From Candidatus Peregrinibacteria bacterium (GTDB taxonomy: Bacteria; Patescibacteriota; Gracilibacteria; UBA1369; JABINC01), in assembly GCA_030700255.1 (NCBI GenBank), contig JAUYJN010000029.1, positions 6,589-70,588 on the forward strand: a stretch of 64,000 nt of DNA. The letters are read 5' to 3'. Position numbers and translations under genes: made by a program. The notes beneath the pieces are model-generated. The model had not been told where the DNA came from. It was given only the letters and a program-made list of their open reading frames with translations, and ran no database searches. Position 1 is the stretch's first letter. Every line of letters starts with the position of its first letter. Below are positions 121-48,064 of this stretch, one piece after another.

Positions 121-1257
121 ATGAAAAATTTAACGAAACTTTCCGATAAAGGCTTACTCGCACGCTGCAAAGAGTATGGTGAACAGGCCATACGTTTTCG
201 ACGCAAGTTTATCGGACTTTTGCCTGAGGTGAAAAAACGTAAACTTTTCGAAAAGAAAAAATGCAAATCCATATACGAATTCGCAGCAAAATACGGAGGA
301 ATAAGCCGCGAACATGTCGATAGAGTTGTGAATTTGAGTGATCGTTTTGCTGAGAAACCTCTCCTGCATAGTTTGCTGGTTAACGGCGAAATAAGTTCAA
401 ATAAATTAGCGAGAATAGCTTCTATAGTGGACATGATCGATGAAACTGATTTAGTAGAAGCTGTTAAAAAACTTGCTTGTAGAACAGTTGAAACATATGT
501 TCGAGATGTGAAACGGGAATTTGGGGTAAAAGATTGGTGCATAGGTGAGAGAAATAATTGCCTTGCAGTTGGAGAAGAAAATCTTTTGAACTTTGGTGAT
601 AACATATCAACTGATATTTTCGGAATAAATTCTTCTCCTGCCAACTTAGGTGGCGAGGTAAACTTTAATTCCGATGAAAAAAGTTCAAAGATAAAAATCG
701 AAAATGGCTCTCTTGAGCCGCTAAACGACCCTAAATCTGTGCACGTGCACAGGCCTTGCGTAGAGGATAATACGGCAATAAGTCAAATCGAGATAGGATC
801 TAAGGTGGGTGAGTATCATGAAAAAGAGGCATTGCCTCTCAAAAAACTCCAATTAAAACTTTCGCAGGAAACGCTTGAAAATCTGCTTGAGTTGCAGGAG
901 AGAGGCGTAAGCGTCGATAAACTATTTAGAGAATTTTTACAAAAACGCGAAGAGAATCTAACTGAAAACAAAGTAAAAGTTGCAGCAAAGGAGGTGGCAA
1001 AAGAGGAGAAACGAAGGGTTGAGGGCAAGAAGGCTAATCGACGATTGTCTGTAGGTGTGAAAAAAGTGTTAAAAGATGAATTTGGAGATCGGTGTTCGGT
1101 CAGCGGTTGCCTGAGGGAGTCAGTGCATATTCATCACAAAGTGCCGTTTTCGATCTCTGGAAGCAACGATCCTCGTTTGCTCGCTCCACTGTGTCGAGAG
1201 CACCATGATATAGTGCATTCAATTAACGTGAAATATTTGGAGAAGAAAATGCGTTAA
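121..1257 (+). CDS. HNH endonuclease-domain protein with DUF222-like helical N-terminus (paralog of 30069..30965)
   Basis: C-terminal HNH signature GDRCSVSGC...HIHHKVPFSISGSNDP...LCREHHDIVHS; N- and C-terminal blocks closely match the second copy in the window. Confidence 0.8.
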   Translation: MKNLTKLSDKGLLARCKEYGEQAIRFRRKFIGLLPEVKKRKLFEKKKCKSIYEFAAKYGGISREHVDRVVNLSDRFAEKPLLHSLLVNGEISSNKLARIASIVDMIDETDLVEAVKKLACRTVETYVRDVKREFGVKDWCIGERNNCLAVGEENLLNFGDNISTDIFGINSSPANLGGEVNFNSDEKSSKIKIENGSLEPLNDPKSVHVHRPCVEDNTAISQIEIGSKVGEYHEKEALPLKKLQLKLSQETLENLLELQERGVSVDKLFREFLQKREENLTENKVKVAAKEVAKEEKRRVEGKKANRRLSVGVKKVLKDEFGDRCSVSGCLRESVHIHHKVPFSISGSNDPRLLAPLCREHHDIVHSINVKYLEKKMR

Positions 1258-43837: not shown

Positions 43838-46498
43838 TTACTTTTTTGCAGCTACTGTAGCTTTGGCGGTGCTTAGTGTGATTTTTTCCTTTGTTAATCC
43901 AATATTTATCGTGTCGCCTTCTTTGATTTTGCCATCTATCCAAAGGTCAGAGAATTGGTCTTCGATAATTTCTTGGAGTTTGCGGCGGACGGGACGTGCG
44001 CCGTACTCAGGATCATAACTTACGTTCGCCAAGTGTTCTAAAGCTTTATCACTTACATTGAAATGAATATTTTTTTCAGACAAACGCTCTTCGATCTGAG
44101 CTATGTGTAATTTCACTATTTGTTTGATCTGATCGTGAGTAAGCGGTCTAAATACAAGAACTCCATCCAAACGATTGATAAATTCAGGTTTGAAATGTTC
44201 CTTCATCTTCTCAAGTACTTGAGCTTTTTTCTCCTCATAAGCTTCTTCAGCTTCATTTAACTCATCTTTACTGAGTGAGAATCCGATTTTTGCAGCTTTG
44301 TTAGTCAATTCTTCAGATCCAATATTTGAAGTCATGATTATAATTGTATTTTTGAAATCCACTTTACGTCCTTTACCATCTGTAAGTTCACCATCTTCCA
44401 TGATTTGAAGAAGAATATTGAAAACATCAGGATGAGCTTTTTCTACTTCATCAAATAAGACGATAGAGTAGGGTTGTTTACGAATTTTTTCAGTAAGCTG
44501 ACCTCCTTCCTCATATCCAACATAACCGGCTGTAGTACCGGTAAGACGTGAAGTATTATGACGTTCCATAAATTCAGACATATCTATCTTTATGAGAGCA
44601 TGCTCATTGTCATAAACTTGCTTAGCAAGTTGTTTTACAAGCTCCGTCTTACCAACTCCGGTTGGCCCCATGAACATAAACGCACCAATTGGTCTTTTGT
44701 GATTACCAATACCTGTACGAGAGCGACGTATCGCTTGAGCAACACCGTGAATAGCCTCTTCTTGACCTATTATAACGCTACCAAGTTTCTCTTCGAGATT
44801 CTTTAGCTTTTTCGCATCTTCTTGCAATAATTTTGAGACCGGTATACCGGTCATTCTTTCAATAACTTTTGCAACATCGTCAGCATCTATACTCTCACGT
44901 TGGCTACGTGGGATTTTAACTCGTTTCGCTTCATTGATTTCTTCCATAAGCTTAAGTTCCTGCGAACGAAGCTGCGCTGCGGCTTCATATTCTTGGTTTG
45001 AAACAGCGATTTCTTTATCTTTATTGATTTTCTTAAGATCTTTTTGCAATCCTTTTATAGAATTTGATTGTTGAGGACTCTTGATAACTTTAAGAGCCGC
45101 AGCTTCATCGACAAGATCGATTGCTTTATCAGGCAAAAATCTATCATTGATATATCTATGAGAAAGAGTAACTGCGCTTTCAAGAGCGTCATCAGTTATA
45201 AGCAAGTTATGATGATCTTCAAAACTCTCACGAAGACCTCTAAGAATCTCAAGTGAATCTTCGGCATTTGGTTCTCCAACTACAATTGGCTGGAATCTAC
45301 GTTCAAGAGCGGTATCCGGTTCAATATGTTTTGAGTAATCATTAAGCGTTGTCGCTCCAATCATTTGAATTTTTGAACGAGAAAGTGCCGGCTTCAATAT
45401 ATTTGCGGCATCCAAACTTCCTTCCGCTGATCCCGCTCCAACTACAGTATGTAGCTCATCTATAAATAGAATTACATTATCAAGCGTAGTCGCTTCATCA
45501 ATAATTTGTTTAATTCGTTCTTCGAATTCCCCACGATATTTTGTACCTGCTACGACTGAGGCCATAGATAATGAAAGAATTTTTTTGTCTAACATAGAAG
45601 TTGGCACTTCTTCATTGACAATCGCGTAAGCTAGTCCTTCAGCAACAGCTGTTTTACCAACTCCGGGCTCACCTATAAGTACCGGGTTATTCTTTGTTTT
45701 ACGTTGTAATATACTTACCATTCTCTCTATTTCAGAGCTTCGCCCAATAACCGGCCCAAGCTTTCCTTCACGACATTCTTTTGTCATATCCGTTGTGAAG
45801 TAATCAAGGGCAGGAGTGGCAGTTCCTTTTTGCTGAGTATCAGCAGGTTTATTCGCAGCCTTTTCGTAAGCTTCTTGCGGCTCGTTGTTATTCGCCTGCA
45901 ATACCCCATGAAGTCCACTCAAGAAGAATTCCAAAGGATTCATGCCATTTTTCTGCATATCAGCAGGATTACCGGCAGAGCTTCGTTTACCACCACCGGC
46001 AGTTTTATTCATATCACCGGTCATTGCTCCGGCAGGAGATTTTAAATTATCAAAAGTTTCAGCGATCTTACCTTTTATATCATTAGTTGAAACCTTCATA
46101 TTTTCCAATATAACTGTAGCAGCTGTATTTTCTTGGCTAACGACTGCAAAAAGCAGGTGTTCAGTCCCAACGAATGAATGCTCATGTTCATGAGCACATT
46201 TTACTGCATCCTCAATAACTTTTTTAGCAAAACCGGAAAGCCCCCCTTGCTGTCCAGGTTTCATTTGAGTACTTGTGACACGTCCAACTGACTTAAGAAC
46301 AAGTTCTACATTACCAAGTGAAACACCAAATTCATTTAGAATAGATGCTCCAAGCGATGATTGCTGACTGAGCACACCAATAAGTAGGTGTTCCGTACCT
46401 ACATATGAAGATGTCATTTGCTTAGCTGTCTCTTGCGCGACCATCAAAGCCTGCTTAGCCTCTTTGGTAAACTTTTCGAAACGTCCTTCGGATGTCAT
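43838..46498 (-). CDS. clpC: ATP-dependent Clp protease ATP-binding subunit ClpC
   Basis: Two Clp_N repeats (GTEHLL x2), two AAA+ modules ([16 protein letters not shown]), a short UVR-like M-domain ([13 protein letters not shown]) and a ClpP-docking IGF loop (AKIGFSL). Confidence 0.9.
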
Positions 46499-46657
46499 TT
46501 TTATTTTGTATTAAGGGATGAAAATATTGAAGTAGCTTCATTCTACCTCATTTTGCGCTTTTTTTTAAGTTCTCATGCCAATTCTTCGCTTTACTTTTTA
46601 CCTCTAATATCCTGCAATATATTAAACGGAGTAGTGGCCAATGTATTACATAGCAAA

Positions 46658-46684
46658 TTGGCACTCTAGATTATAGAGTGCCAA
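46658..46684. promoter_or_regulatory. CIRCE-like inverted repeat (candidate HrcA operator)
   Basis: TTGGCACTC-N9-GAGTGCCAA versus the CIRCE consensus TTAGCACTC-N9-GAGTGCTAA (8/9 in each arm). Confidence 0.6.
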
Positions 46685-46698
46685 CCGCATTATTGCAA
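46670..46698 (-). promoter_or_regulatory. near-consensus promoter for clpC overlapping the CIRCE-like element
   Basis: On the minus strand: TTGCAA (46698-46693), 17-nt spacer, TATAAT (46675-46670); the -10 lies in the CIRCE spacer. Confidence 0.55.
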
Positions 46699-46705
46699 CG
46701 AAAAA

Positions 46706-47035
46706 TTATCGAATTAATTCCTCAATTATTTTATCAAAATGATACTGCAACTGATTTTCACTTATACTTTCTTCTTGATTTTTACTATAGATGCAGAGTG
46801 GAGCTAAAAGATCTTTGTTTACATATACATAAATATAGCACCTTAAACTTCCGGATTTACCTTTATTTTGATCGGAGCTTTTTATTCTCACTTTATAAAT
46901 CGATTTCCCGATGTGAATTTCATTTTTGAAATCAATGGTTTTTATCTTCAAAAGCAAATCCTCTTTTGCGTGAGGGAATCTTTTCATCAATTTTTTTAAT
47001 TGATGTTTAAAATGATTGGCAAAAAAAGGCTTCAT
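46706..47035 (-). CDS. RelE/ParE-superfamily toxin-like protein
   Basis: YKVRIKSSDQNKGKSGSLRCYIYV...LLAPLCIYSKNQEESIS resembles the kvR...GKSgGyRviy...ll.iy.K core of RelE/HigB-type toxins. Confidence 0.55.
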   Translation of the reverse strand: MKPFFANHFKHQLKKLMKRFPHAKEDLLLKIKTIDFKNEIHIGKSIYKVRIKSSDQNKGKSGSLRCYIYVYVNKDLLAPLCIYSKNQEESISENQLQYHFDKIIEELIR

Positions 47036-47044
47036 GAAAATTCC

Positions 47045-47275
47045 TTATATGTCTGACAGTTGCTCTTCGGCTGAAGGAAGTGTATCGGTATCGATTTTAT
47101 CGAGTAACTTATTGAGAATGTTGATTGAATTATCAAGAGAGTTTTTTTTGGTCAAAAAATAGTATTTGATAAGAAAAGTAAACGTGGCGGTACGATTTCC
47201 CAATCCCTCTTCCTCTTGAATCAAATCAAGTTCTTGCGGAATTTTTTCATTTACTTTGAATAGTATTGAACTCAT
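47045..47275 (-). CDS. putative cognate antitoxin (small, upstream, 9-nt gap)
   Basis: 76-aa ORF directly upstream of the toxin-like gene; no motif recognised. Confidence 0.4.
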   Translation of the reverse strand: MSSILFKVNEKIPQELDLIQEEEGLGNRTATFTFLIKYYFLTKKNSLDNSINILNKLLDKIDTDTLPSAEEQLSDI

Positions 47276-47347
47276 ATACTTTATATTACATTCTATTTAT
47301 CATATAAAATATATACTTTTTATATAAAAAACGCAATTGAAAAGTAT

Positions 47348-48064
47348 TTATTCCTCGAATCTGAAGCTCGCCACCATCTGCTCGAAGATTTTTTCTTCCT
47401 CCGGAGTTGGACCGGCCACACTCATGATATATAATTTACCGTCTTTTGCAAAATAAGCACTCATCCTTACATTCGATGAGCCCATACTGAGTCCGTCTTC
47501 CGGCATTTCACCGCGTACAATAATGATTGACCATGCTTCAGCATATATATGTATTCTTTTCGTCACATTATTCAACCATTTTTCTTGTTCCGCAATCATT
47601 GCCTCAACTGAAGAATAACCTTCGGGCATACCTACCATAACAACGATTTTTCCAGCATATTCCGACCCAAGAGTTTCAGGCAGGGCGGTGGAATCAAAGC
47701 TTGCATAGTCCATACCATTCACAATTCCATAATGATGCCAGTACCAATTCTTCGGGAAGTCTATGGAGTATTTATAAATTTTGTTCGTGAAGGTTTGCGG
47801 TTCGAAGACCGTTTCCGCGGTCAATTCCAACACTTCGGATTCAGCTTCGTTTTCTACCACAGGAGCTGTTTCGGTAGAGGGTGTTTCTTCCACAATCGGC
47901 GCAGGCACTACCACTTCTTCTTCGGATTCGATGACCACTTCATTCTCTTCCGGTTCTTCAACGACGCTTTCTACATTCTTATTATTGTACCAATACATAC
48001 CGCCTCCAACGATGATCGCAGTGATGAGAATTGCGAGAATGGGTGACTTCGCTTCATTATACAT
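47348..48064 (-). CDS. membrane-anchored extracytoplasmic protein with an acidic linker
   Basis: TM ILAILITAIIVGGGMYWY; C-terminal domain begins YSIDFPKNWYW. Confidence 0.55.
   Translation of the reverse strand: MYNEAKSPILAILITAIIVGGGMYWYNNKNVESVVEEPEENEVVIESEEEVVVPAPIVEETPSTETAPVVENEAESEVLELTAETVFEPQTFTNKIYKYSIDFPKNWYWHHYGIVNGMDYASFDSTALPETLGSEYAGKIVVMVGMPEGYSSVEAMIAEQEKWLNNVTKRIHIYAEAWSIIIVRGEMPEDGLSMGSSNVRMSAYFAKDGKLYIMSVAGPTPEEEKIFEQMVASFRFEE

Follow-up and report, generated by a model that had tools for sequence, protein, structure and literature searches.

The clpC gene in the 64-kb stretch of DNA that we analyzed (hereafter the window) is preceded by a palindrome which is likely to be a functional CIRCE operator for HrcA, fused to a distal sigma-70-type clpC promoter (P1), in a Peregrinibacteria-like bacterium belonging to the Candidate Phyla Radiation (CPR). 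An earlier note on this DNA had proposed an operator of the HrcA/CIRCE type that occludes a clpC promoter, and this proposal is supported by comparative evidence: the sites of sister loci, CIRCEs at 44 of 77 loci of ClpC homologs, and the regulon of relatives. The features of the region are as follows.

43838..46498, - strand: clpC, coding for 886 aa (translation, Pfam and NCBIfam scans, alignment to solved ClpC structures)
46528..46550, - strand: small hairpin (TGAGGTAG...CTACTTCA) followed by AATATTTTCAT; overlaps the P2 -10 and was flagged as terminator-like
46540..46568, - strand: proximal promoter P2; -35-like TTAAAA (46568-46563), 17 nt, -10 TAGAAT (46545-46540), 9/12 match to consensus
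46589..46594, - strand: conserved GTAAAG motif in the clpC leader, 43 nt upstream of the P2 -10
46658..46684, - strand: CIRCE-type inverted repeat (predicted HrcA operator), the sole match in the window, with orthologous canonical CIRCEs in loci L005 and L004; left arm TTGGCACTC (46684-46676), spacer TATAATCTA (46675-46667), right arm GAGTGCCAA (46666-46658)
46670..46698, - strand: distal promoter P1; -35 TTGCAA (46698-46693), 17-nt spacer, -10 TATAAT (46675-46670) within the spacer of CIRCE; 10/12 positions agree with the sigma-70 consensus
46706..47275, - strand: a co-oriented pair of small genes (76 aa and 109 aa, from the ORF list), ending 7 nt before the P1 -35

The operator, promoter P1 and the clpC gene

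The protein encoded at 43838-46498 contains two Clp_N repeats, a ~65-aa low-complexity linker after the N-domain, AAA+ D1, a short M-domain, AAA+ D2 and D2-small. Its nearest solved relatives were S. aureus ClpC, B. subtilis ClpC and M. tuberculosis ClpC1, each aligning as one stretch through the short M-domain. Residues 215-868 could be aligned in a single stretch to S. aureus ClpC, whereas ClpB aligned only in two pieces, and an IGF tripeptide in D2 was aligned to the ClpP-docking loop of ClpC. In addition, the ClpB model remained below its cut-off on the window protein, unlike on CPR ClpB proteins. Because of its Clp_N and AAA+ domains, the one-stretch alignment and the IGF loop, this product is a true ClpC. 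Both the MAG GCA_034376305.1 and a groundwater metagenome assembled by Logan encode an identical ClpC. The window sequence was found in DNA groundwater metagenomes only, and no RNA run matched it or the Hainich relative L141. Homologs of 61-65% identity come from sources named Peregrinibacteria, Gracilibacteria or Patescibacteria, and the window therefore derives from a Peregrinibacteria-like, genome-reduced member of the CPR.

On the + strand, positions 46658-46684 read TTGGCACTC-TAGATTATA-GAGTGCCAA. As the earlier note had described, this is a 9-N9-9 repeat that agrees with the CIRCE consensus at 8/9 positions per arm with two symmetric deviations; in total, TTGGCACTC-N9-GAGTGCCAA differs from TTAGCACTC-N9-GAGTGCTAA by 2 mismatches in 18 positions, and the GCACTC/GAGTGC core is intact. 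A search with TTRGCACTC-N9-GAGTGCYAA, allowing up to 3 mismatches, returned the clpC site as the single match in the window. That the repeat arose by chance, or serves a regulator with no relation to HrcA, is hardly credible: even at 3 mismatches only 0.06 sites are expected per window (mean of dinucleotide-preserving shuffles), the site occupies a conserved orthologous place, and the same element is found at dnaK, groES and hrcA in relatives. Moreover, there was no direct repeat of the CtsR type near clpC and no Rfam match.

The operator lies on a vegetative promoter of a proteostasis gene. The spacer on the - strand, TATAATCTA, opens with TATAAT, and TTGCAA was located exactly 17 nt upstream of it, as claimed previously; the resulting sigma-70-type promoter, P1, has its predicted start at ~46664, within the right arm and ~165 nt from the ATG at 46498, so that the long 5' UTR implied in the earlier note agrees with our estimate. 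We infer HrcA binding, occlusion of P1, titration of GroEL and both transcription start sites of clpC, and regulation would proceed in the following way. Since the -10 lies between the arms and the -35 is located 8 nt upstream of the left arm, an HrcA dimer occupying the two arms would mask the -10 together with the start site, and RNA polymerase would thereby be kept off P1. By analogy with characterized HrcA systems, HrcA would stay active only with free GroEL/ES; when unfolded proteins titrate the chaperonin, or when heat inactivates HrcA, the repressor would leave the operator and P1 would fire, adding clpC transcripts with a leader of ~165 nt. Promoter P2, ~100 nt downstream of the operator, would probably provide basal clpC expression independent of HrcA. 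Both HrcA operators that overlap core promoters and the GroE titration model have been documented in other bacteria (PMC6032397).

With the P1 start inside the right arm, the transcript would be devoid of the left arm, and the element would thus act as DNA and not as an RNA hairpin. The palindrome could instead be mainly an RNA hairpin, serving as a terminator or stabilizer for the upstream small genes or, where transcription reads through, as an element that affects the stability of the mRNA. CIRCE is known to affect mRNA stability in B. subtilis as well, and as RNA the repeat folds to -23.6 kcal/mol (z = -4.5). The stop codon of the upstream gene precedes it by 22 nt, and the terminator scan detected no other terminator between this gene and clpC. 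However, the stem is not followed by a U-tract (AUUUGCUAUG) and the terminator scan did not flag the palindrome itself. The element is also conserved in L004 and L005 despite different upstream genes, and it matches the HrcA consensus base for base, beyond what mere pairing would need. Together with the absence of the left arm from P1-derived RNA, these observations make an RNA role very improbable compared with a DNA operator for HrcA.

CIRCE sites upstream of clpC in related genomes

Two related loci, L001 and L002, do not differ from the window in the intergenic region and were uninformative. L005, whose ClpC is 95% identical, has TTAGCACTC-TATAATCTA-GAGTGCTAA at the homologous place, and L004 (ClpC 87% identical) has TTAGCACTC-TATAATGAC-GAGTGCTAA. 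In both loci a TTGACT -35 is present exactly 17 nt upstream of TATAAT, in the same register as in the window, where the -35 (TTGCAA) is weaker. In L003 (ClpC 83% identical), CIRCE is gone and only the promoter-proximal part of the leader, with GTAAAG and P2, is kept; thus, loss or decay of the element does occur in the clade of the window. The window site might itself be a decaying or relict CIRCE, i.e., one that descended from a real operator and no longer works, with clpC being effectively constitutive from a self-sufficient P2. The state of L003 fits this possibility, as do the two arm mutations of the window site and the perfect site and better -35 of its sisters, but we consider it unlikely.

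Since L005 and L004 are canonical at the homologous place, the window site is a canonical CIRCE that was changed at position 3 (A>G) and at the mirror position 25 (T>C). We derived the variability of each operator position from 42 CIRCEs located upstream of clpC. Variation was seen at positions 1, 3 and 4, at the mirror positions 24, 25 and 27, and at position 19, and the core C5-C9/A20-G23 (CACTC/AGTG) was nearly invariant. G was present at position 3 in 7 of the 42 sites and was the only non-consensus base there, and C was present at position 25 in 5 of them. Both deviations therefore fall at positions that are among the most variable of the operator, and an altered repressor is not needed to accommodate them. 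Against a relict, the two changes keep perfect dyad symmetry and spare the invariant core, and the same bases recur in many other sites: in the genome scan described below, the TTGGCACTC arm was found in at least 14 and the GAGTGCCAA arm in at least 4 of the matches listed, before dnaK, hsp20, hrcA, clpB and clpC. One locus, L193, has a double variant identical to that of the window upstream of a ClpC homolog. Two dnaK sites (L006 and L010) likewise have a TTGCAA -35 with a spacing of exactly 17 nt, and CIRCEs with up to 2 mismatches are functional in Mollicutes (PMC5138195). The two changes may mirror each other because a symmetric dimer site was selected for; alternatively, the symmetry could have arisen by template-switch correction of the quasi-palindrome after a change in one arm.

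The similarity between the window and L005 breaks exactly at the left edge of CIRCE, and the pair of small genes (76 aa and 109 aa) is absent at the clpC loci of L003-L005. The sequence upstream of the window operator, including the -35 region, was replaced by this inserted gene pair, which is a further point in favor of a relict. Pfam and NCBIfam searches with the 76-aa, 109-aa and 238-aa upstream ORFs gave no match, even at E = 10. By eye only, the small gene pair resembles a RelE/ParE-type toxin.

We also examined a protein-first sample of 80 loci of ClpC homologs (44-66% identity) from JGI metagenomes, which were chosen regardless of their upstream DNA and of which 77 were analyzed. CIRCE (up to 3 mismatches, within 450 nt upstream) was detected at 44 of these 77 loci, and the calculated chance expectation was ~1.5e-4 per locus. 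Two architectures were observed. In the clade of the window (at least 58% identity), approximately 22 of 33 loci show architecture A, in which CIRCE is located at -110 to -190 and its spacer contains a TATAAT-like -10; GTAAAG comes next and, 20-50 nt ahead of the ATG, an extended -10 (TGnTAnAAT). The other loci of this clade (~11 of 33) have no CIRCE, a proportion that is also in line with a relict in the window. Another clade, at 50-54% identity, shows architecture B: CIRCE comes ~20 nt after a single promoter of the extended -10 type, and this order, promoter and then CIRCE, is the arrangement known in Bacillus. Predicted HrcA control of clpC is therefore widespread among these bacteria, and its layout was rebuilt differently in different clades.

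The promoter-operator cassette and HrcA in Patescibacteria

A pattern-first scan with TTRGCACTC-TATAAT-NNN-GAGTGCYAA, covering one genome per species (185,579 species), yielded at least 120 loci. The matches listed were mostly from Patescibacteria (Peregrini-, Peri-, Gracili-, Uhr-, Magasaniki-, Parcu- and Moraniibacteria). A -35 (at least 5/6 match) was located at a distance of 16-18 nt in 92 of the 120 sites listed, almost all of them in Patescibacteria, and this distance was 17 nt in 64 of the 92. Listed sites that had no -35 were mostly from Firmicutes and Proteobacteria, and the occurrence of TATAAT in their spacers is probably coincidental. Genes downstream of the sites were clustered and then named using Pfam and NCBIfam. 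The Clp group was split by NCBIfam and sequence identity into 6 ClpC orthologs and otherwise mostly ClpB, with one ClpG/K-like protein. Numbers of sites, among the 92 listed, and median distances from the CIRCE end to the start codon were as follows.

dnaK: at least 28 sites, median 32 nt
clpB or ClpG/K-like: at least 17 sites, median 21 nt
hrcA(-grpE-dnaK): at least 14 sites, median 1 nt
groES/groEL: at least 13 sites, median 27 nt (groES)
true clpC orthologs (L029, L041, L063, L067, L119, L121): at least 6 sites, median 126 nt
hsp20: at least 4 sites, median 7.5 nt

The remainder of the 92 listed sites had no identified chaperone or Clp gene downstream, and no lon site was present among the scan matches listed. 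The earlier note had regarded CIRCE control of a Clp ATPase as known mainly from Mollicutes. It is indeed known there (clpB and lon), but it is not confined to them, being widespread in Patescibacteria upstream of clpB and clpC.

A tblastn search of the 64-kb window detected no hrcA, dnaK, groEL, groES, grpE or hsp20, in agreement with the earlier note, which had listed hrcA, groEL and dnaK as missing. No hrcA was found in the ~10 kb flank on another contig of GCA_034376305.1 either. The source genome presumably encodes hrcA, by analogy with its relatives. In Uhr- and Magasanikiibacteria, a short HrcA (~231-240 aa, PF01628 match) is encoded after the cassette, and in at least 14 Peregrini-, Peri- and Gracilibacteria loci among those listed in the scan, the gene for a short HrcA is located immediately upstream of CIRCE-dnaK. 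In 12 of 14 such hrcA genes, a degenerate CIRCE in the same register (TTAGCACTG-TATAAT-NNN-nAGTGCTAA, 2-3 mismatches) is found directly upstream of hrcA, which is what weak autoregulation would look like. The N-terminal winged helix of the lineage HrcA aligned with residues 16-141 of T. maritima HrcA (PDB 1STZ; E = 2.5e-21). The lineage protein is about 100 aa shorter, and residues 142-230 of 1STZ (~90 residues), which we take to include the inserted dimerizing domain, have no counterpart in it. In one MAG, CALMAI01, an hrcA-grpE pair (L053) occurs along with a clpC ortholog that has CIRCE in front of it (L063; 63% identity to the window ClpC). The search proposed in the earlier note, for hrcA and further CIRCEs, thus had a positive outcome in relatives.

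Classical CIRCE/HrcA systems have the same 9-N9-9 operator, from which the window site differs by the two symmetric mismatches, on a vegetative sigma-70-type promoter. The repressor family and the GroE-titration logic are presumably shared as well (model: PMC6032397). The target here is clpC, however, and the HrcA of the lineage is ~100 aa shorter. In B. subtilis, CIRCE lies at the start site or downstream of it and is thus transcribed into the mRNA, whereas in the window the -10 is inside the spacer and, judging from the predicted start, the left arm is not transcribed. The HrcA regulon of Mollicutes includes clpB, lon, dnaK and dnaJ, and CIRCEs with up to 2 mismatches work in these organisms (PMC4245973, PMC5138195). 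They are likewise genome-reduced and have HrcA/CIRCE control reaching AAA+ proteostasis ATPases beyond groE and dnaK. The differences are that here the targeted Clp protein is ClpC, an unfoldase that couples to ClpP and has the IGF loop, with ClpB as an additional target in related CPR genomes, and that the lineage (Patescibacteria) is a different one and uses a stereotyped promoter-operator cassette. Overlap of operator and core promoter is shared with Helicobacter pylori, whose HrcA operators overlap the -35/-10 and start-site region, implying promoter occlusion (PMC6032397). The H. pylori sites, however, are only CIRCE-like and act with HspR at the groES and hrcA promoters, whereas the window has a near-consensus CIRCE in a fixed register and no sign of a HAIR/HspR element at this site.

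Firmicutes place clpC under the control of CtsR and not of HrcA. The outcome in their ctsR-mcsA-mcsB-clpC operon would be the same, i.e., stress-inducible derepression of clpC from a promoter-bound repressor. The CtsR operator is a heptad direct repeat, however, and none occurs near the window clpC, nor were ctsR, mcsA or mcsB detected upstream of it (Pfam/NCBIfam). Membership in a CtsR regulon was considered separately and rejected: RGTCAAA-NAN-RGTCAAA, with 3 mismatches allowed, gave 12 matches in the window compared with 11.5 expected, none of them within 46000-47500.

The kind of element is classical, and for heat-shock specialists the mechanism is conventional; what is new is its attachment to clpC, the CPR lineage, and the stereotyped promoter-in-operator cassette, which recurs throughout a regulon with ClpB, ClpC and Hsp20 among its members. 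A large part of bacterial diversity belongs to the CPR/Patescibacteria, nearly all of which are uncultured. Recognizable transcription factors are very few in them, and to our knowledge almost nothing is known about their gene regulation. The window site and its relatives provide a concrete candidate CPR regulon, in which HrcA would control the unfoldases ClpC and ClpB in addition to chaperones. The resemblance to the unrelated, genome-reduced Mollicutes suggests a convergent simplification of stress control onto one repressor. The cassette also supplies a set of CPR promoters (-35 TTGAC, 17 nt, TATAAT), which should help in the annotation of promoters, and of leaders that are short or missing, in these genomes. 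Our literature searches for HrcA or CIRCE in Patescibacteria/CPR returned nothing relevant, which is not proof of absence, and the same was true of a search for CIRCE overlapping a -10; neither the regulon nor the GTAAAG element was found in the searchable literature.

The clpC leader and promoter P2

The leaders of clpC are long, with 108-159 nt from the CIRCE end to the ATG, versus medians of 1-32 nt in other members of the regulon (matches listed). This length is explained by a second, conserved proximal promoter, the predicted P2, which is located ~40 nt before the clpC ATG and has a predicted start at ~46533, leaving a 5' UTR of ~35 nt. Orthologs of clpC with 58-64% identity, whose leaders are otherwise unalignable, preserve the P2 -10 in the form of an extended -10 (TGnTAnAAT) located 20-50 nt ahead of the ATG. 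P2 is also retained at the CIRCE-less loci L003, L127, L133 and L188. Because the P2 -10 is conserved and survives in loci devoid of CIRCE, we read clpC as a two-promoter gene, with P1 controlled by HrcA and P2 probably independent of it. With P2 in the leader, clpC is probably not under HrcA alone, and HrcA control would be only partial.

The GTAAAG motif is present in most clpC leaders of the clade of the window, including CIRCE-less loci. Its distance to the P2 -10 is 32, 42/43 or 53 nt, i.e., it varies in steps of about one helical turn; it is 43 nt in the window and in L003, and 32 nt in L004 and L005 owing to an 11-nt indel. Such steps point to a protein site on a single face of the DNA, and a second factor that acts on P2 may bind at GTAAAG. 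A broader proposal, which we advance tentatively and hold to be somewhat short of an even chance, is that the shortened HrcA would be a master regulator of CPR proteostasis through the cassette of -35, left arm, -10 and right arm at dnaK, groESL, hrcA-grpE, clpB, hsp20 and clpC, with clpC alone keeping an HrcA-independent proximal promoter governed by a GTAAAG-binding factor.

A known leader RNA or riboswitch was also considered and rejected, as positions 46400-46800 gave only chance-level matches to Rfam at E values up to 10 and the leader as a whole showed no significant fold (z = -1.2). The small hairpin at 46528-46550 was absent from more distant clpC leaders. In the alignment of L003-L005, its TGAGG/CCTCA pairing was kept and its loop was variable.

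Operators upstream of hrcA and the short-form repressor

Peregrinibacteria, Peribacteria and Gracilibacteria carry a degenerate CIRCE upstream of hrcA, with 2–3 mismatches and in the same promoter register as in the cassette, the promoter-operator unit found before chaperone and Clp genes in Patescibacteria. Its typical form is TTAGCACTG-TATAAT-NNN-nAGTGCTAA, and it was located in the following genome-scan loci.

Degenerate CIRCE upstream of hrcA (locus, position)
L011, 3324
L015, 7297
L038, 5592
L039, 190
L057, 3805
L076, 2673
L082, 867
L088, 134
L112, 3222
L118, 1696
L120, 1903
L125, 2633

Whereas the site at hrcA is degenerate, the adjoining dnaK at these loci has a perfect one, a difference in operator sequence that suggests graded autoregulation.

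The repressor of Patescibacteria is itself a short form of ~231–240 aa (loci L053, L008, L019, L026, L077 and others), for example:

L053, 3622-4338, minus strand: short-form HrcA

The winged helix is conserved in this form, and ~90 residues are absent, corresponding to T. maritima HrcA 142-230, the part that we take to contain the inserted dimerising domain. Several MAGs labelled 'uncultured Gammaproteobacteria' (L026, L028, L077, L090, L092, L096, L098, L099 and L110) combine this short CPR-type HrcA with the CPR cassette (TTGAC -35), and their labels are probably wrong.

Leader lengths and a DUF488 gene

Among the loci of the genome scan (L006-L125, at least 120 sites, 92 of them with the -35 box of the cassette), the median distance from CIRCE to the start codon was 1 nt for hrcA and 7.5 nt for hsp20. 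Since these start codons closely follow CIRCE and the predicted transcription start lies in its right arm, the hrcA and hsp20 leaders should be only ~5–15 nt, which implies that their cassette mRNAs would be nearly leaderless. In two Peregrinibacteria MAGs (L053 and L017), a perfect cassette is followed by a gene for a 126–130-aa DUF488 protein (PF04343/PF22751), a possible and unexpected addition to the regulon; in L017 the gene order is DUF488, then dnaK.

L053, 147-527, minus strand: DUF488 gene after the perfect cassette

The clpC leader, upstream genes and ClpC linker

Two elements were found in the leader of clpC in the window.

46589-46594, minus strand: GTAAAG motif, conserved across clpC leaders
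46528-46550, minus strand: hairpin with a T-rich tail, overlapping the -10 of the proximal promoter P2, ~30 nt upstream of the clpC ATG

When clpC leaders were compared, GTAAAG was shared by the window, the close relatives L003-L005, the cassette loci L029, L063, L067, L119 and L121, and many of the metagenome homologs L126-L195, and it is also kept in leaders that have no CIRCE. Between it and the proximal -10 hexamer lie 32, 42/43 or 53 nt; thus, the motif keeps helical phase with this hexamer. It looks like a site for a DNA-binding factor acting on P2. The TGAGG/CCTCA pairing of the hairpin is retained with a variable loop (a long insertion in L003) and is confined to the genus-level clade. 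The hairpin could be an attenuator of transcripts from the distal promoter P1.

Further upstream, a gene pair and an ORF separate the clpC promoter from the SLH/CARDB surface-protein gene, an insertion absent at the corresponding place in L003-L005.

46706-47275, minus strand: pair of 76-aa and 109-aa genes
47348-48064: 238-aa ORF inserted with this pair

On visual inspection, the 109-aa protein looks like a RelE/ParE-type toxin (KGKSG...R..Y motif); none of the Pfam or NCBIfam models matched it. In GCA_034376305.1, a MAG encoding an identical ClpC, the left end of the window (121-1257) is on JAXMJY010000046.1 and clpC (43838-46498) on JAXMJY010000020.1; therefore, the assembly behind the window is more contiguous and joins both. 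AbiEii, Fic and TraC-like/PrgI genes lie nearby.

ClpC itself is 860–915 aa in the window's clade versus ~810–818 aa for Firmicute ClpC chains (PDB), because its N-domain is separated from AAA+ D1 by an additional low-complexity, Gly/Asn/Lys-rich linker of ~65 aa.

45850-46050: extra ClpC linker, residues ~150–215

A second clpC architecture

In metagenome ClpC homologs of 50–54% identity (L161-L185 and L196), a single extended -10 promoter precedes CIRCE by ~20 nt. Many of the elements there show the symmetric variant TTATCACTC-N9-GAGTGATAA. Both arms were changed complementarily in 4 sites, versus one arm only in 2, a pattern that may point to symmetric drift or to a shift in specificity within this clade.
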